64,000 nucleotides of DNA from Squalus acanthias (lineage: Eukaryota): NCBI GenBank assembly GCA_030390025.1, contig CM059432.1:19408001-19472000 (forward strand), written 5' to 3'. Within the stretch, counting starts at the first letter, position 1. Each line of letters begins with the position of its first letter. The notes beneath the pieces were generated by a model that saw only the letters and a list, made by a program, of their open reading frames with translations, did not search any database and was not told where the DNA came from. Position numbers and translations under genes: made by a program. This document shows positions 13,010-61,753 of the stretch, one piece after another.

Positions 13010-13620
13010 CAGCTTATTCCTGTGTGGAACCAGCACTGTTTTTCAACAGTAATGCCTTCCATTCACTCAATGTTCAACTTGTTTGTGATCACAGGCTGCA
13101 AGTCATGCAGGTCTGTGCCCGGTTTCCTGGTAATTATGACGCTTTCATACTGCACCAGTTCTCAATTTGGCCTCTGTTCCACCCAGAAGATTGGGTGGCA
13201 GGTTGGCTGCTGGGGGACCAGGGTTACAAACTGGCTCGTGATTCCTCTCAGGAACCTGGCCACAGATGCGGAGCGTCGATATAATGAGAGCCATGCAACA
13301 GCAAGGGTTCTGATTAAGCAAACCATTGGCGCCCTGAAACACTTGTTCCTCTGTCTGGGCAGCTCGAGAGGAGTCATTCAGTACAGCCCAGAGCGAATGT
13401 GAAGATTCATAATTATTTGCTGCATGCTCCATAATTTTGCAATACGAACGAGAGTTACCATGGAGCTTCCTGAGGAGGAAGAAGTGGAGCAGGAAGATGA
13501 AGAAGGAGATGAGAAGCCGAAGGATGGAGAGGAAGAGGGCTAAAATTCAAAGAGCTGAAATGGGTGAGCTGCCTGTGGAGGCACGCCAGATGCCGGCAGA
13601 TCGGCAAACTTATCAAAATG
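13010..13620 (+). pseudogene. Decayed Harbinger (DDE_Tnp_4-type) transposase, C-terminal half
   Basis: FHSLNVQLVCDH, ARFPGNYDAFIL, WLLGDQGY, ERRYNESH, QTIGALK, QYSPER, CCMLHNFAI and an acidic tail, colinear with the intact transposase. Has frameshifts and stops. Confidence 0.85.
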
Positions 13621-14045
13621 ATTATTCTGCGGTGAACTCCTCCAACCCCACCATCACCTGTTTATCTCATACTCTAAGGAACACTAAGGGGGAAAAATTA
13701 GGTCGCGCCCCGTTTGGGGCGCAAATATCGTCTGGACGCAAATATTAGCGCCTGCCGCTAATTATTGCCACTGACTGGAAACTTCAATTTACCGCCCCAG
13801 GAGGTGAGTGGAGCGCTAAATCAGGCGCTGCACACCTGTCTTAAGGCGCAAAGGCCGAGCAGTGAGGCGCTAACTCAGCGCGCGAGCGCAGCGCAGGTGC
13901 TACCAGTTAGCGAGGGAACACAGACACACTGGCGCCGGCCAGTTCTTAAAGCGGGGGGGGGCAACTTGCTCCCCAGTCACACCCTGCTCATTGCAGCCTT
14001 GAATCTCAGCCTGGAGAGACTTGTGAATCCATTTTGCTGCCAAGG

Positions 14046-15919
14046 ATGGAGAGGGTGAGAGAACGAGCTCATCGCTTCACCGAGCGGGCCTTGGATGCTC
14101 TGGTTGGCGCGGTGGAGCGCAGAAGATGTATACTCTTCCCTGAGAGTGGCAGGAGGCCTTTGCCACGCGAGTACAGAAGAGTGTGGAGGGAGGTGGCTCA
14201 GAGCGTCTCCTCCAGGAGCATGGTGCCCAGGACCCATGTTCAATGCCGCAAAAAGTTCAACGACCTCACTCGGGTCGTCAGGGTGAGTGGCTTTTTCTCA
14301 ATACCTCTCCATCCCTCCATCTCAACCTCACTCTATGGCCAGAGGGTCTTAAAACCCCAATGCACAACACTCATCCAACACCTATGGCCCTTTCATGAAA
14401 CACACACACACATTCCACACTTTGCATACAGTAAGGGCTATTCACCTATGGCAGGCACATCAGGCAAGACCATGGCTGCATACAGTAAGGGCTATTCACC
14501 TATGGGAGGCACATCAGGCAAGACCATGGCTGTATACAGTAAGGGCTATTCACCTATGGGAGGCACATCAGGCAAGACCATGGCTGTATATTTACTCAGA
14601 TGCTGTCCTTTTTCTTGCAGGCCAAGCTGGCGCATAATAGGAGACAGCAGCAACGGACAGGTGGAGGGCGGCCTCAGCTGCAACCCCTCAGCGATCTTGA
14701 GGAGCGCGTCCACAGGATTGTGGCAAGCCGGGTGATCGGTCCCGTCGCCACTGGAGACGCCGACCCCGTTCTGGACAGCAATGGTAAGGTCATCACCTTT
14801 TTGTCCTCTGTCCTTCCACTTGTCCCTCACAACACCAGCCTTTGACACTTTCAATCCAACTTGCTAACTCGCTGCACTTATTCCTCCCTTACTGCCACCC
14901 TGTCCTCACGCTAAAGCCACTCTTGTACCTCCCTGCTTTCAGATGGTGATTCACCAGCTGAGGAGACGGGCCCTGAAGCTGCCACTGGGAGTGAAGCTGC
15001 AGCCGAGGAGGAAGAGGAAGCCGGAGCATCAGTGCCACCCTCTCCCGAGGAAGCCCATGCCCACACTGGGAACACGCCTTCCCTGGAGGGGAGCAGGGGG
15101 GAAGGGTCTGATGAGGGTGAAGCTCCAGGACCCAGTGGGCTGCAGCAACGCCATGGGGGTAGGGAAGAACGGGGGCCTTCTCCCCAGAGGGAGAGTATGC
15201 CAGAGACTCCTACTGCAATGGACGCAGAGGAGGAGCGGCTGATCGCAGAAATGAACACCCAGGCGGTGGGCATGCACACTGAGCTCATGGGTGCAGTGGG
15301 AAGGGTGCCCGAATGCATTGAGTCACTGGCAAGGAGTGTGGAGCACTTCGCTGTAGCACAGGCGGATGCCACACTAACGCTTAGTGCTGCAATTCAGTCA
15401 CTGACTGCCGTGATCCCATCTCTGACTGCTCTCATGCAGACTCAGATTGAGGCCACACGAGCACTGACTGCTGCCAACCTCGATGGTTCGTTCACATGTC
15501 CCCGGGGCTCTCACCACGCCGCAGCAGGCCAGCAATCTGTGCTCCAGCAGATTGCTCCGGATGCTGAAGTGCTGCCCCGTGGGAGTGCCAGTGTGTCGGG
15601 CGAGCAGGGAGTTGCTGTCCTCTCTCACGATGACAGCATTCCTGCTGCCAACACTGTCACTTCTCCACTGCACTTGCCACCGCCTGTAGGACAGACTGCT
15701 GCCGCCCATGCAGAGTTGGTGCAGTCTGCAGCCGGGCCCTCCAGGCCCAGAACTGGTCGAGGCCGTCCTTCAGGGGCATCTGCAGTGTCAGGGTTTGACG
15801 ATCAGCAGCCTTCCACCAGCCTTGCTGCAGCCACTGAGGTCCCATTACGAAGGAGCAGTAGGGTTAGAAGAGGGGAAGTGCGCAAGGGAAGGAGATCACA
15901 CTCGAAGGGCAAAAAGTAG
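14046..15919 (+). CDS. Harbinger Myb/SANT (trihelix-like) DNA-binding protein; 3 exons 14046-14282, 14621-14783, 14943-15919; ~458 aa
   Basis: Exon 1 encodes RFTERALDALV..W.EVA..VS....RT..QCRKKFNDL. Donors AGG|GTGAGT and G|GTAAGG; acceptors TTTTCTTGCAG| and CTGCTTTCAG|. Phases 0 and 1 join in frame (237+163+977=1377 nt). Exon 2 has KLAHNRRQQQRTGGG. Basic C-terminus RRGEVRKGRRSHSKGKK. Splicing is inferred. Confidence 0.85.
14423..14584 (+). repeat. 3 x 54-bp near-perfect tandem repeat in intron 1 of the Myb gene
   Basis: TGYATACAGTAAGGGCTATTCACCTATGGSAGGCACATCAGGCAAGACCATGGC starting at 14423, 14477 and 14531. Confidence 0.95.
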
Positions 15920-16231
15920 GAGGTGTGACAAAATGCTGGTCATTTTTTTATTAAAGGCCGAGGTTCGTGGTCCAACTTTTGTTTAGTGTTTTGGACATTA
16001 TCTCCAGGTTGTGAGAACCAGTTATGTTATTGACTGTTTTTTTGTGTTTATTTCTATGAGTTTGTCATGAGGAAATGACACACACAGAGTTTGTAAAATA
16101 AATAAGTTTCTGTATTCAAAATATACATGTTTGGTGTTTGGAATTATTGGTGCCTTGGCCGGCTTAGGGGTTGCGTGCTGGGTTCATTGATGTTGTTAGC
16201 AATGGCAGAAGCCATTTCCACAGCAGGGGCC

Positions 16232-17389
16232 CTAGAAGCGGCTTGCTATCAGCCGTTGACGGACGGCCCTTGCAGTTTCACCATTGTGGGCCGCCCTCCC
16301 GCCTTGGTGCTGCTGATGATCATCCTCCTCGTCCTCTTCCTCCTCTTCCTCCTCCTCTGGTGGTGCTCCAAGGCTTGGTGGCATTGGCTGGGTCCTGACG
16401 ATTGCCATGTTATGCAACATGCAGCACACAACTACGAAGTTGGATACTCGCTCAGGCGAGTACTGCAGGGCTCCTCCAGAATGGTCGAGACAGCGGAACC
16501 GTTGCTTCAGCACGCCGATTGTGCGCTCAATGATGTTCCTGGTAGCTTGATGGCTCTCATTGTACCGCAGCTCAGCAGGGGTGTTGGGCGTACGGAGCGG
16601 TGTCATCAGCCAGGTGCTCAATGGATACCCCTTGTCCCCGAGAAGCCAACCAACTGGCTGATGCGGTGCCTCGAAAAGTTCTGCCACAGTAGTCTGGCGC
16701 AGGATGAAAGCATCGTGGCAGCTGCCAGGATAGTGGGCATTGACAGCGAGTATCAGCTGTCTGTGGTCACAGACCAACTGAACATTCAAGGAATGGAACC
16801 CCTTTCTGTTCCGGAATTCCTCGGCATTCTCATGTGGAGCACGCAAAGCCACATGCGTGCAGTCAATGGCGCCCTGCACCATGGGGAAGCCCGCTATCCT
16901 CGCAAAGCCCAGAGCGCGGTCACGCTGCTTGTCTGGGGTCATGGGGAAAGAGATGAACTCTCGTCTCCTTTTAAAGAGGGCATTTGTGACCTGCCGGATG
17001 CAGCAATGCACCGTGAACTGGGAGATATTGGCGAGGTCCCCAGCAGCAGCTTGAAATGAGCCAGTAGCATAGAAGTTGAGAGCCACTGTGACCTTCACTG
17101 CCACCGACAGAGACGTCCTGGACCTCAGTTGAGGCTGCAGATCTGGCTGCAGCAGGTGGCAGAGCTCAGTGACCACCTCCTTGCTGAATCGCAGCCTTCG
17201 CAAACACAGCTCCTCAGACATATGAATGTAGGAGAGCTGTTCACGATATACCCTGGGAGGGTAAGCTCTCCTGTACATACGCCTGTTGGCCCTCCTCCGT
17301 CTGGCCATCATTGCCACTCTCTCTCTGCGTCTCTGTGTCCTCCGATTCAGCTGGAGCAGGACGACGCCCCCAATCAGTGCAGCCCCCAT
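16232..17389 (-). CDS. Harbinger DDE transposase (HARBI1-like family), single exon, 385 aa from the ATG at 17389
   Basis: Uninterrupted ORF with HTH-like region (KVTVALNFYATGSFQ..GD..ISQ.TV..CI) and catalytic motifs GAIDCTH, LLGDKGY and RNIIERTIGVLK, plus an acidic tail. The MGAAL start matches MGAVL in the sister copy at 39501. Confidence 0.93.
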   Translation of the reverse strand: MGAALIGGVVLLQLNRRTQRRRERVAMMARRRRANRRMYRRAYPPRVYREQLSYIHMSEELCLRRLRFSKEVVTELCHLLQPDLQPQLRSRTSLSVAVKVTVALNFYATGSFQAAAGDLANISQFTVHCCIRQVTNALFKRRREFISFPMTPDKQRDRALGFARIAGFPMVQGAIDCTHVALRAPHENAEEFRNRKGFHSLNVQLVCDHRQLILAVNAHYPGSCHDAFILRQTTVAELFEAPHQPVGWLLGDKGYPLSTWLMTPLRTPNTPAELRYNESHQATRNIIERTIGVLKQRFRCLDHSGGALQYSPERVSNFVVVCCMLHNMAIVRTQPMPPSLGAPPEEEEEEEEDEEDDHQQHQGGRAAHNGETARAVRQRLIASRF

Positions 17390-17583
17390 AGTCTCTTTGC
17401 AAGCAAAGTTATGAAGGACAGCAACCAAAGTAGCAGCGAAGTTAGGATCAGTAGGCAAAACTACCTCACAAAGCGTTGACTCAATGCAGAAGTCTCTCTT
17501 TCTCTCTCTCCGAATCTCTCTCTCTCTCTCAGAACGAGTGGTGCAAAAATGTCAACCACAGAAAAAGACAGGAAGAGGCCCCC

Positions 17584-17591
17584 TTTAAATA
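17584..17591 (-). promoter_or_regulatory. Candidate TATA box of the transposase gene
   Basis: TATTTAAA ~195 nt upstream of the ATG. The sister copy has TATATAAA at 39317-39324 in the same GCGCTA context and at similar spacing. Confidence 0.5.
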
Positions 17592-18149
17592 GCGCCCCCC
17601 CCCCAGCCCCACAGCGATTGATAGCGTTCCAGTCTTCTGGTCGTTAGATGCGCCAGGCGGTAAGGCAGGGGGCACCACTCAATTTCTGCTCCGGGGCGCC
17701 ACAAGGGCGTTGCACCATGGAATGACGTCACAATCTGCGCGCGCAGGTGGTCGCGGCGGTAAAGTTTAGCGCCGCCGCACAATGTCTAGTTAAGTTCCTG
17801 AGCGGCGCAAACATCGCTGCGCCCGGGCGCTAGCGGCTTTGCGCCCCATTAGCGCCCTCTTAAGGCACTAACGGGAGGCGCAACCAACTGAATTTTTACC
17901 CTTAAGCTTTTAAACAGATACATTTTCAATTGTTCTTCTCAACATTTTTCTCTTGTTCCTCCTGAGGTCTCCTAACACAACTTCTTGATTGAACTCCTCT
18001 TTACAACCTTCTGCTAGAATCAGTTTGGCTTAGTTGGTAGCACTGTTGCCTTTGAGTTAGAAGATTGTGGATCCAACAGATGAATTACACTAACACATCA
18101 GTGTAAAACTGAAGGAATTCGGCATTGTTGAAGGTGGTGTCTTTGGATA

Positions 18150-25815: not shown

Positions 25816-26578
25816 GGGCCAAAAATTCGGCACTTGCCGGGTGAGTACGCACTGTGTACTCACCCGTAAGGCCTCCTGAAGTGCTGGTTTCCTGCATGCA
25901 CTGCGCATGCGCGGGAAACCGGAACTTCCGGTCTCGTGAAGGGAGCGGTTCAGAGGTGAACCGTGTGCGCAGTAGAGGCTGCGCGCACGCAGCAAACTTG
26001 TGTTTTTTTTCAGGTTTCTCCGGGAGGGTAAGTATGGAAGAACCTGTGCTTTTAAAAAGGAGGCACAAGACCCGTTTTCAACAAGGTAAGTGGTTAATTA
26101 ATTATAATTAAAAAAAATGTCAACAGATTTATCTTTTTTAGATACTTTAAAGAAAGGTAAGTTTATTTTTAGCACTGTTAAAAAGTATTTTAATTTTTTC
26201 AAAAATTTAAATTTTTGTTTAAAGTAGTTAATTTATTTAATTTATAGTTATTTTTAAAATGTGATGTTTTTTTAAAATTTATTTGAAGTTTAGCTGTTGT
26301 TTTGGGACCGATTTCAATTCATAGATTTGACAGGTCTTCCTGTCAAATCTATGAATGAAAGATGGTCTGCTGCCATTGGCTCTCCATGGCCCACGTGATC
26401 CCAGGGGACGCATCGCACTAACTACGCCCCTGGGACACGCAAGCACTGCACGCCGGCAGTTAGGGCAGGCCCAGGAGCTGAAGTCCCCGTGGGCCAGAAG
26501 CAGAACGGCAGACGTGGTAGGTAAGTGCGCGCGCGATCCTTACCCCCGCGGCAAGCCGGAGAGGTGAATTTCTGGGCC
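25816..26578. mobile_element. Harbinger-type MITE
   Basis: Ends GGGCCAAAAATTC / GAATTTCTGGGCC with perfect TSD AAT (25813-25815, 26579-26581). Confidence 0.78.
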
Positions 26579-26756
26579 AATGTCACTGTTATTTGGAATG
26601 TCCAAGGAGCTCTGTCTACACTGCTTATGCTTTACTTGGGAGGCCGTCTTGGAACTTTGACATGTCTTCCAGCCAGACCTGGTTCAATAAGGAGTGTAGA
26701 AGAGCATGCCAGGAGCAGCACCAGGCGTACTTAAAAATAAATTAAAAATTAAAAAT

Positions 26757-28974: not shown

Positions 28975-29500
28975 GCTGGGATGCCTTTGCGCACAGCGGT
29001 GAAAGGCATAACTGCTTTACACTTCTCTGCAGTGACTCCTTTCATGCTGGCTCACGGGACGTCTGTCAGATCAGACACTCTGCAGGCCACTGCTGCATAG
29101 ATCAGACCGATGCTGCATTGTTTGCCAGCGAGTTAATTAGTTTTCCTATGGATAATGGCCAACAGCAATAGATGGCTCTTCACTCTTTCAGAGTGCAGGG
29201 CCTCATCCATAGAATCCATGGGCTTCTCCCACCAATGCTGTGACATTTATGGACAGGCCGGGCTTGCCTTCTATCCACGTCCAGGTTTTATGTAATGTAG
29301 GTAGATACTCGTTACCCTGGAAGCTGCAGTGCCGCATTTATTCAAGGTCCGTCTACAGTCTCATTATTATTTCAAGGCATTTCTGCCCTGGATGAAGGCC
29401 TCTTTGATAACCAGGCGTAGCTGATCAGAGCTGATCCGCCGTAGCTGATGATACCAGTGCAGAATCCAAGATATGCAGCAGAGAGAATATCCAATAAGGC
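28975..29500 (+). pseudogene. Strongly decayed Harbinger transposase
   Basis: VKGITALHF..SFHAGSRDVCQI..AGHCCI..ALF..ISFPM and LMIPVQNPRYAAER align with VKVTVALNF..SFQAAAGD..HCCI..ALF..ISFPM and LMTPLRTPNTPAELR. Confidence 0.65.
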
Positions 29501-29864
29501 ACACAAATTCACAAGGGTATAAATGTAGGGGGTGAATTTCCGCAGGGTTGCTCCTGCTTATCCACCCTAACTTTGACAGAAGTGCCGTGGACGTCCCTGA
29601 AAAAGGTATAAAGAGAGCTTACGCTGTTTTTGGGGGTTTCCGTGGCTTTTCTGCCGAAGGTACAGTGGACGATTGGGAGACACCCCGTAGAAATCCCACC
29701 CCCCCCACCCCCCCACCCAGTATTCAACAGACATACCAAAACAAAGACTCCACTCTCTGGATAGGTCTGAGTCAGTCCTGCAGTACAAGCCCAGAAAGAT
29801 CTCCTAAATGATAAGGGCGTGCTATCTGCTGCCTTATTATACTAACAGGGTAGAATATATGAAG

Positions 29865-36949: not shown

Positions 36950-37645
36950 GAGAGGCGGAGAATTTTAGGGAGGTAATTCCAGAGCCAATAGTGCAGTGAT
37001 TAATATTGGGGTTGCGCAAGAGCCTAGAATTGGAAGAGCACAGAGATCGTGAAGGGTTGTAGGGCTGGAGGAGGTTACGGAGATAGGGAGTGGTGAGGGC
37101 ATGGAGGGATTTGTCAATAAGGATGAGAATTTTAAAATCGAGGTGTTGCCGGACTAGATTACTGAGCACAGGGGCAATGGGTGAACAGGGCTTGGTGCGA
37201 GTTAGGATATGGGCAAGAGAGTTTTGGATGCCTTAATTTTATGGAGAGTGGAAGATGGGAACCTGATTAGAGAGCATTGGAATAGGCAAGTCTAGAGGTA
37301 ACAAAGGCATGGATGAGGGTTTCAGCAGCAGATAAGCTGAGGCAGGGGCGGAGTCGGGCGATGTTACGGAGGTGGAAGTAGGCGGTCTTGGTGATGGAGC
37401 GGATATGTGGTCGGAAACTCATCTCAGGGCCAAACACAACACCAAGGTTGCAAACAGTCTGGATCAACCTCAGACAGTTGCCAGGGAGAAGGATGGAATC
37501 GGTGGTGAGGGAACGGAGTTTGTGGCAGGGACCGAAGACAATGGCTTCGGTGTTCCCAATATTTAATAGGAGGAAATTTCTGCTCATCCAGTACTGGATG
37601 TCAGACAAGCAGTGTGACAAATCAGAGACCGTGGAGGGGCCGAGA
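36950..37645 (-). mobile_element. L2 LINE fragment
   Basis: CLSDIQYWMSRNFLLLNIGNTE..NLGVVF..TAYFHLRNIARLRP..ETLIHAFVTSRL and DFKILIL..KSLH peptides. Confidence 0.85.
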
Positions 37646-37647
37646 GA

Positions 37648-37860
37648 TTGGCAAGTTTCCCATAGATTCAAGGAACAGTTGATGGGCTGCATGTGGCATT
37701 CAAAGTCTCATAAGAGAGTTCTTTCAATTTTGTGAAAGGGAAAGGATTTCATTCCATTAATGTGCAGCAGGTGTGTGACACCAATCACTTTATTCTGCAT
37801 GTGAATGCCCACTACCCTGTCGTGACACTTGCATCATTTGCCAATCCACCATACCTTCCC
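37648..37860 (+). pseudogene. Decayed Harbinger transposase fragment
   Basis: My translation: ASFP*IQGTVDGLHVAFK..KGFHSINVQQVCDTNHFILHVNAHYP. Confidence 0.75.
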
Positions 37861-39019: not shown

Positions 39020-40532
39020 GGGGAGAAATTGGGCATCTTCGCGCCTCCCGTTAGCGCCTCCCGTTGGCGCTAACGGCTTTGCGACTGGGCGCAGCGATAG
39101 TACCGACGCCTGCGAAATTGAGGTGGAAGTTTGCGGCGGCGGTAACTACTAGCGCCACGATCTCTTGCACCCGGAGATCGTGATGTCATCCGGGTGCACA
39201 GCGCCCCGGTAGCGCCCCGGCTCTGAAATTCACTCTCGCCCCCTGCCTGAGCGCCTGCCGTTAGCAACGACAGGCAGAGGAGGCGGTATGCAATCGGATG
39301 AGCGCTGGAGGAGCGCTATATAAAGGCATCAACTTCTGTTCTTTTTTAGTCTGCAAAGAATGCGGCCTTGTCAGTTTGACAAAAGCAAACAGGCGCTTTG
39401 AGCGATTTGAGCATTCTCAACTTGAAGGAGTATTCTGGCTGAGAAAACTTTATCACTTTCATTTGGGTTACATTTGATAGTGCAACATTTCCATCATTTA
39501 ATGGGGGCTGTACTGGCACGGGACCTCGCCCTCCAGCTTCACAGTCGGAGGCAGCAGAGGCAGAGAGAAAGATTGCAAAATATGGCCAGAGGGAGGAGGG
39601 TCAACAGAGTTCTCAACAGGAGGCCTCACCCTCCCAGGGTATTCCGGCAGCATTTCTCCTACATCAATCTCACTGAGGAGCAGTGTCTTAGAAGGCTCCG
39701 CTTCACCAAGGACGTGGTCACAGAGCTCTGTCACCTCCTGCAGCCAGACCTCGAGCCTCACATCAGGAGCACCACGTCTCTCTCAGTGGCAGTCAAGGTC
39801 ACCGTCGCCCTCAATTTCTACGCCAGCGGATCCTTCCAGTGTGCAACATGAGACGTATCTAACATATCGCAGTTCGCCGTCCATTGCTGCATCTGCGAGG
39901 TCACAGATACTCTCTACAGAAGGAGAAGGGACTGCATTTCCTTCCCCATCACAGAGAGAAGCAGCGCAAGCGTGCATGTGGCTTTGCCAGGATAGCGGGC
40001 TTCCCCATGGTGGAGGGCGCCATTGACTGCACTCACGTCGCTTTGCAGACACCTCATAACAATCCTGAGGTATTCCGTAACCACAAAGGCTACCATTCAT
40101 TTAATGTGCAGTTGATGTGCGACCACACACAGCGCATCCTCACCATCAATGCCCGCTATCCTGGCAGCAGCCACGATACCTTCACCCTGCACCAGACCGG
40201 TGTGCCAGCTCTGTTCCAGCCACCATATCAAGCTAACGGCCGGCTGCTGGGAGACAAGGGTTATCCGCTCTCCACCTAGCTCATGACTCCCCTCCGCAAC
40301 CCCAGCACTCGTGCCCAGCACTCATACAATGAGAGACATGCAGCCACCAGAAGCATCATTGAGCAGACCATCGGAGTGCTCAAGCAACGGTTCCGCTGCA
40401 TTGACCGTTCGGGAGGAGCCCTGCAGTACTCAGCTGAGCGGGTGTCCCTTTTTGTCATCGTCTGCTGCATGCTGCACAACTTGGCCATCATGAGGGCCCA
40501 GCCATTGCCACCAGGCATAGCTGCAGCACCTC
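39020..40532 (+). mobile_element. Truncated Harbinger sister element (transposase-side terminus plus transposase)
   Basis: Terminus GGGGAGAAATT followed by GCGCCTCCCGTTAGCGCC, the reverse complement of the intact element's right end. Cut off by CR1 tails at 40533. Confidence 0.85.
39501..40530 (+). pseudogene. Harbinger transposase pseudogene
   Basis: Clearly homologous to the 16232-17389 protein along its length. In-frame stops at 39849-39851 and 40277-40279 and a frameshift near 39950. Confidence 0.9.
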
Positions 40533-40672
40533 ATAAGAACATAAGAAATAGGAGCAGGAGTAGGCCACTTGGCCCTTCGGGCCTGTTCCGCCATTCAATA
40601 AGATCATGTAAAAGAATACAAATGCTTACTCTGGGAGTTGAAGCGTGGCCATGCTGATGTAATGGTTGTTGT

Positions 40673-60859: not shown

Positions 60860-61753
60860 GGGGGAAAAATTCAGTCGCGCCCCATTTGGGGCGCAAATAT
60901 CGTCCGGGCGCAAAGATTAGTGCCTGGCGCTAATTATCGCCACTGACTGGAAACTTCACTTTTAACGCCCCGGGAGGTGATTGGAGTGCTAAATCAGGCG
61001 CTGCACACCTGTCTTAAGGCGCAAAGGCCGAGGAGTGAGGCGCTAACTCAGAGCGCTGGCGAAGCTCATGTAATGTCAGCCAGCAATGGAACACACACAC
61101 AATGGCACGGGCCAGTTCTTAAAGGGGATGGTTGATCTTGCTTTCCATTCACATCCTGCTAATTGCAGCCTTGAATCTCGGCCTGGAGAGACCTGCATAT
61201 CAAATCTGCTGGAAAGAACAATGGAGAGTACCAGGCAAAGAGCTCAGAGTGCAGCCCCCACAGTCTCTTCTAAATCGATACAAGGAATGGCAAATCAAAA
61301 TGAACCTGCAAAGTGCTGCTAAGTAGCCAAAACTCCTTCACACAACGTTGAATCTCTCCAGAAGTCTCTCTCACTCTCTCTCAGAATGCGTAGTTTAAAA
61401 ATGGCACCAACAATAAAAGGCAGGAAGCGGTCACCTTTAAATAGCGCTCCCCCTTTCCCTTCATGACAGAAGAACGCTCCTATCAACCTGTCATTGCTAG
61501 CGTCAGGCGGTAAGGCAGGGGGCGCCACTCAATATCCGCTCCGGGGCGATACCGGGGCGTTGCACACTCGTCTGACGTCACGATCTGCCGGCGCAGGAGA
61601 TCATGGCGGTAGTGTTTAGCGCCGCCGCAAAATGTCTAGTTAATTTCGTGAGCGGCGCAAACTTCGCCGCGCCCGGGCATTATGCTGCTTTGCGTCCCAT
61701 TAGCGCCCTCTTAAGGCGCTAACGGGAGGCGCAACCAACTGAATTTTTCCCCC
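60860..61753. mobile_element. Non-autonomous internal-deletion derivative of the 13688-17902 Harbinger family (894 bp)
   Basis: Perfect 16-bp TIR GGGGGAAAAATTCAGT and TSD ACT. Left part aligns with 13688-14071 and right part with 17376-17902. Confidence 0.92.

Follow-up and report, generated by a model that had tools for sequence, protein, structure and literature searches.

Positions 13688-17902 of a 64,000-nucleotide stretch of the Squalus acanthias genome (GenBank assembly GCA_030390025.1, contig CM059432.1, forward-strand positions 19,408,001 to 19,472,000; hereafter the window) hold a two-gene Harbinger transposon of 4,215 bp with TAA on both sides, at coordinates that we confirmed exactly. 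We consider this element to be a full-length copy, open in both genes, of a Harbinger family with over 3,000 copies whose spread probably ended, wholly or nearly so, millions of generations ago, and we put the probability of this reading at roughly three in four. A first-pass annotation, made from the letters of the window, had suggested that the element may be active; present activity is unsupported, as no near-identical independent insertions were found among 150 copies compared.

An intact two-gene element from a large, young family

The features that define the Harbinger superfamily are present: an open reading frame (ORF) for a DDE transposase, another for a Myb/SANT protein, a duplication of 3 bp of target sequence (target-site duplication, TSD), terminal inverted repeats (TIRs) and a target preference of about 15 bp. 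The element is a complete two-component PIF/Harbinger transposon with both frames unbroken, and its first-pass assignment to this type stands, with transposase, Myb gene, TIRs and TSD all verified. The transposase frame matches Pfam DDE_Tnp_4 (E 3.3e-40); it is uninterrupted over its 385 amino acids and carries the motifs GAIDCTH, LGDKGY and IERTIG, as first annotated. An AlphaFold model, based on an alignment with 23 homologues, has a mean predicted local distance difference test (pLDDT) score of 83.8 and places D176 within a strand, D252 immediately following a strand and E288 on a long helix, the same strand/strand/helix arrangement as is described for PIF/Harbinger transposases (PMC4482050). 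The PDB gave no match to the transposase sequence, and a Foldseek search of the PDB with the model had no match at E <= 0.001; its highest-ranking, weak entries are DDE transposases and integrases. In the protein database the best match is a Pristiophorus japonicus protein at 67% identity, no entry above this value being found, and many more shark and ray proteins follow at 47-66%. Sharks and rays account for every one of the best 77 listed matches, which supports the shark-type host already suspected and suggests a long-standing elasmobranch clade of such transposases.

The Myb gene converges with the transposase gene, again as first described. Splicing at GT-AG sites joins its three exons into an open frame of 458 amino acids with no internal stop; exon 1 carries the Myb/SANT-like domain, and the alignment of a homologue (P0008; amino acids 5-113, 47% identity) covers the junction of exons 1 and 2. 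A GT..AG joint that skips the 159 bases of intron 2 occurs in both of two sequencing runs presumed to be RNA, which come from two organisms and whose RNA status is a guess, and in neither of two DNA runs. Unspliced contigs occur as well, and the intron 1 joint is absent from the joints listed. The transposase gene is intronless and its transcripts are indistinguishable from DNA in these runs. Intron 1 contains a 54-bp tandem unit present one to eight times among copies, most often twice (83 of 150) or three times (36 of 150).

Searched with exact 24-mers, the 3.71-Gb genome yields 3,571 matches for the left end and 3,008 for the transposase, and none for the reversed 24-mers, so that the close copies sought by the first-pass annotation are plentiful. 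At 3,008 copies of 4.2 kb, the mostly full-length family would occupy at least about 0.35% of the genome. For a sample we took the first 80 transposase 24-mer matches along one contig, which were not picked by full-length likeness to the window copy. All except two reach 3.8 kb in length (78/80); the transposase frame is open in 45, the Myb frame in 49 and both in 28, of which 22 also have clean ends. Scaled to 3,008 copies, both frames would be open in about 1,050 (740-1,400 as the 95% range), some 830 of them with clean ends. Because 28 of the 80 copies are equally open, the window copy is ordinary within its family and not a rare survivor. A doubly open share of about a third is the expectation for neutral decay of a young family.

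Selection and amino-acid tallies, from which two duplicates (L041 and L099) were left out, separate two periods. Over 93 young-subfamily copies, singleton changes (synonymous/nonsynonymous/stop) number 77/228/11 in the transposase, compared with a neutral 80/226/10, and 108/270/13 in the Myb gene, compared with 109/271/11; the corresponding ratios of nonsynonymous to synonymous rates (omega) are 1.05 and 1.01. Between subfamilies, the ratio of nonsynonymous to synonymous differences (pN/pS) is 0.38-0.45 in the transposase and 0.11-0.28 in Myb amino acids 1-110 (p 0.0003-0.025). Since subfamily differences are constrained and singletons are neutral, the sequences indicate that both proteins were required while the family spread and that copies decayed freely afterwards. 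The catalytic glutamate E288 is retained in 144 of 144 copies and D176 in 142. The residue that follows the catalytic glutamate, codon 289, is His in 22 of the 144 copies and Cys in 8; His is present in all 15 older-subfamily copies and recurs in younger copies at the same CpG codon.

Age and present activity

Terminal branches have a median length of 0.62%, and that of the window copy is 0.67%. With the mutation rate published for the epaulette shark (7e-10 per site per generation, 95% confidence interval 1.4-14.1e-10; PMC10587355), divergences of 0.34-0.62% correspond to 5-9 million generations; the upper bound of this rate, which is that of another species, gives 2.4-4.4 million. Contigs in a sequencing run of another organism are about 99% identical to the family (4 differences in 750 bases), which would fit a burst older than the species split if that run is from a distinct species.

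Recent transposition should be visible as near-identical copies at independent sites, and none was found among the copies compared, roughly 150 out of over 3,000. The nearest copy to the window element is 1.07% away. Only 2 of the 11,175 pairs among 150 distinct copies are less than 0.4% apart, and both share flanks. We rejected the L040/L041 pair as fresh insertions, both flanks being common to the two, and likewise the L083/L099 pair, whose right flanks correspond over about 1.7 kb apart from 4 mismatches and in which L099 is without the left third of the element. L083 (62.59 Mb) and L099 (83.42 Mb, same contig) share a segmental duplication that comprises the right two thirds of the element together with no less than 1.7 kb of adjoining sequence, in which a tandem repeat lies. 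Both of the close pairs are segmental duplications. Genome searches were seeded with three of the least-mutated copies, each scoring 36-40 candidates; apart from the query itself, the closest candidates differed by about 0.5-0.6%, and the hit lists overlapped. Five loci retrieved a second time were dropped, and one of these searches contributed only its six new places to the comparison of 150 copies. None of 142 copies combines clean ends with freedom from rare amino-acid changes in the transposase and Myb amino acids 1-110. When the left flank was used to look in the assembly for an empty allele of the site, the search returned only the window itself and older relatives at 74-81%, and no empty-site joint of the element occurs among the 15 joints listed from sequencing-run contigs.

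Several observations weigh against an extinct or nearly extinct family. The copies compared are only about 5% of the total, so a small active sub-lineage could escape. The copies differ in age, the youngest of them forming a tail near 0.25%, and some insertions may be polymorphic, because this value is little above the 0.2% nucleotide diversity given for another shark (PMC10587355). The roughly 740-1,400 doubly open copies are ample raw material for low-level activity, and the family is transcribed, with Myb intron 2 spliced, if the guessed RNA status of the runs holds. Finally, the rate used for dating is that of another species, and its confidence range spans a factor of ten.

Alternatively, germ-line transposition of the family may still continue at low frequency, with some open copies supplying both proteins in trans. 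We consider this unlikely, though the most serious of the alternatives. It agrees with the numbers of doubly open and clean-ended copies, the spliced Myb joint in runs of two organisms, the younger tail and the retention of E288 and D176. It is opposed by the lack of an independent pair below 0.4%, even among the copies nearest the three least-mutated queries, by the presence of rare amino-acid changes or damaged ends in every one of the 142 copies, and by a CpG decay along the entire element that points to germ-line methylation.

The first-pass interpretation, in which the window copy itself is active and autonomous, excising and reinserting, is more doubtful still. Its open frames, intact catalytic residues and confident fold model speak for it, but it departs at 27 bases from the majority base per column in an alignment of the 30 top copies, and 12 of these substitutions are CpG transitions. 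Key substitutions had been named beforehand as damaging to the idea of activity; those of this copy include the terminal base 17902, and none is catalytic. In the transposase they amount to A126T, G339S and the loss of one Glu from an acidic tract, A126T lying in a column where homologues show A, S or T and G339S in a variable tail. The Myb changes (R325H, S418F, P453H) all lie outside the Myb domain. The proteins of this copy may thus, to judge from these positions, still work. At its right end the last base of the TIR is T, compared with C in 29 of 29 other top copies, and 93 young copies show 87 C, 2 T and 4 gaps. This change likely impairs the right end, and the window copy is therefore at best a protein donor. 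It further has five subterminal motifs at its left end instead of six, and no daughter copies, as its distance from the nearest copy indicates.

Retention of the frames by host selection, as an incipient domestication like that of HARBI1 and NAIF1, is largely refuted: both frames are open and database homologues are named "putative nuclease HARBI1", but TIRs and TSD are retained, copies number in the thousands, omega is about 1 with neutral stop counts, and the terminal branch of the window copy is typical.

The favoured reading is a family that spread in a burst and whose spread then probably all but ceased. In Harbingers, both proteins are reported to be required, the Myb protein binding the ends and delivering the transposase to the nucleus; excision is described as mostly precise (PMC2836001, PMC9179366). 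By analogy with Harbinger3_DR and rice Ping/Pong, the Myb protein of the present family would bind the element ends, likely at the subterminal 8-mers described below, and carry the transposase into the nucleus, where the DDE enzyme would excise the element and insert it at a preferred target. Both proteins would work in trans, serving every copy whose ends are good, for which reason broken and open copies would spread and decay alike. Methylation would now keep the family mostly quiet.

Tentatively, and at slightly less than even odds, we suggest that among the approximately 800 doubly open, clean-ended copies some encode a working transposase-Myb pair, so that the family would offer a vertebrate Harbinger in native form, usable without being rebuilt and with its own 15-bp target preference, and that mismatched TSDs record error-prone repair of 3-base gaps at integration. 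With thousands of full-length, barely decayed copies, the family is well suited to supply natural Harbinger proteins for structural work or for assays of transposition. It also illustrates a trap: where mutation is as slow as in sharks, present activity does not follow from 99% identity and open frames.

Ends, target sites and neighbouring elements

The features of the element are collected in Table 1. Across the family the TIRs are 12 bp long with one mismatch, and several older-subfamily copies have perfect repeats of 16 bp. Harbinger TIRs are described as "usually" 25-50 bp, with a reported range of 5-1042 bp (PMC4482050), so those of this family are shorter than usual and within range. The first-pass annotation had cautioned that the two TIRs of the window copy differ from each other. 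One mismatch is a family trait, seen in 68 of 93 young copies, and the other, at base 17902, is a lesion of this copy.

Table 1. Coordinates of the Harbinger element and its parts in the window
Feature	Position	Strand	Basis or remark
Left TSD, TAA	13685..13687	+	sequence
Left TIR, 12 bp	13688..13699	+	10/12 positions match right TIR in this copy
Subterminal 8-mer GGCG[CG][AT]AA, five copies	13718..13873		motif count
Myb gene exon 1, Myb/SANT-like domain	14046..14282	+	Pfam PF13873 (Myb_DNA-bind_5), E 6.3e-10
Three 54-bp tandem units in Myb intron 1	14423..14590	+	number differs among copies
Myb gene exon 2	14621..14783	+	open spliced frame; homologue spans exon 1/2 junction
Myb gene exon 3 and stop; low-complexity basic C-terminus	14943..15919	+	spliced frame; GT..AG joint in reads
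Harbinger DDE transposase, 385 amino acids (D176, D252, E288)	16232..17389	-	Pfam, alignment, fold model
Subterminal 8-mer GGCG[CG][AT]AA, six copies	17656..17856		motif count
Right TIR; last base T in this copy, C in nearly all others	17891..17902	-	copy alignment
Right TSD, TAA	17903..17905	+	sequence

Both end regions are rich in CpG, with observed/expected ratios of 0.78 and 0.90 compared with 0.40-0.46 in the remaining window. This richness had been recognized at first sight, together with little decay. CpG sites have decayed across copies by 3.8% and 5.0% per site in the two ends and by 4.5% in the transposase gene, compared with 0.34% at non-CpG sites. Because CpG sites in the ends decay like those in the gene, their good condition reflects youth and not protection.

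The 8-mer GGCG[CG][AT]AA, which was picked after k-mer enrichment had been seen, is absent from the 3.6-kb interior of the element, and the commonest arrangement in young copies is six at each end. These 8-mers are likely Myb-binding sites. Ten more occur in a non-coding element of 894 bp at window positions 60860-61753, which has perfect 16-bp TIRs, an ACT duplication and a left end like the older subfamily's end type. This element had been read as a derivative of the one at 13688. We rejected a deletion derivative, its ends being merely 83% and 75% identical to those of the 13688 element, and regard it as a miniature inverted-repeat transposable element of a sister family. A further copy of this type sits beside copy L007.

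Target-site counts leave out copies without clean ends (26 of 110 in a first count, 29 of 144 in a later one). A perfect 3-bp duplication flanks 94 of 115 clean-ended copies, compared with 7% expected from random pairing. The triplet itself is loose and A/T-rich: perfect TSDs at 68 sites comprise 16 TAA/TTA, 15 ATA/TAT, 10 AAA/TTT and 7 ATG/CAT, and 18 fit TNA. The TAA initially given as the duplication is thus right for the window copy and is not fixed in the family. Around the triplet, the flanks of the 68 sites form a palindromic target of about 15 bp, with A at -5 (0.90), T at +5 (0.88), C at -2 (0.76) and G at +2 (0.63), as well as A at -7 and T at +7. An octamer repeat lies within the target site at 9 of the 68. 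One base of one repeat family has been hit by several independent insertions in both orientations (L009, L040, L045, L050, L062, L085, L120, L127 and L134).

TSDs with exactly one mismatch are in excess, with 16 of 115 copies (loci among L002-L149) compared with 2.1 expected from the element's own rates, about sevenfold, or 5.1 if all bases mutated at the G/C rate. C/T, A/G and A/T changes dominate, and mixing of flanks between copies would yield mainly two or three mismatches. At least the mismatches of L007, L102 and L115 are local changes, because both flanks of each lie in the same repeat as another copy's flanks. The simplest guess for the excess is error-prone filling of 3-base gaps at insertion.

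The neighbourhood holds older Harbinger remains. A decayed transposase fragment adjoins the element on its left (window 13039-13444) and belongs to an older family with many 74-81% relatives genome-wide. Additional decayed transposase fragments lie at 26454-26681, 29013-29516 and 37624-37818, and an older related transposase (39041-40540, plus strand; 66-69% amino-acid identity) has one frameshift and two stops.

Comparison with known Harbingers

Harbingers of cartilaginous fish are little described. One survey is reported to have found none in the elephant shark (PMC9179366), and literature searches on Harbinger and elasmobranch gave no such family in any title or abstract. Assays of a native vertebrate Harbinger are likewise absent from titles and abstracts, and supplements of transposable-element surveys could list the present family. 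Among animals, a naturally moving PIF/Harbinger has been reported in a nematode (PMC13668399). Elasmobranch database entries named "putative nuclease HARBI1" belong to the same transposase clade as the window element, at 67% identity or less; these names are automatic annotation and many such entries are probably transposon copies. The domesticated HARBI1 and NAIF1 are single-copy genes under purifying selection that have no TIRs or TSD, and the family does not fit this description.

NuwaII and PIF/Harbinger groups of the PHIS classification share with the family two ORFs, TIRs starting with GG and a length of about 4.1-4.7 kb, and the C before and G after the TSD that are described for NuwaII are favoured here too (76% and 63%; PMC4482050). 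The strict PIF/Harbinger group is defined by a TSD of TWA and NuwaII by the target C|TNA|G (PMC4482050), whereas TAA/TTA accounts for 16 and TNA for 18 of our 68 sites; on its target sequences the family would belong strictly to neither. In the same source, 88 PIF/Harbinger families and a further 22 families are called "potential active" from two intact ORFs alone.

The zebrafish Harbinger3_DR is described as combining, like the present family, a transposase, a Myb partner and a 15-bp palindromic target (PMC3016246, PMC2836001). Its target consensus AAACAC-CWG-GTCTTT (PMC3016246) is resembled by our flanks (A at -7 and -5, C at -2, G at +2, T at +5 and +7), whereas its central CWG contrasts with the loose A/T-rich triplet found here. 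The Harbinger3_DR proteins were rebuilt from a consensus and shown to be active, while the dogfish-genus family offers natural open copies known from sequence alone.

Naturally intact, transcribed vertebrate Harbingers have, according to the published account, already been found in sea kraits as Harbinger-Snek (PMC8437027). This is also a two-gene Harbinger that underwent a burst in a marine vertebrate, with intact copies in the hundreds (L. colubrina has 269) and, in another species, RNA reads that cover both genes. Its near-identical copies are described as few and its expansion was judged to have slowed, as in the family studied here. Harbinger-Snek is reported to have arrived by horizontal transfer and to make up 8-12% of the genome, whereas the Squalus family occupies at least about 0.35% and has its best protein matches in elasmobranchs.

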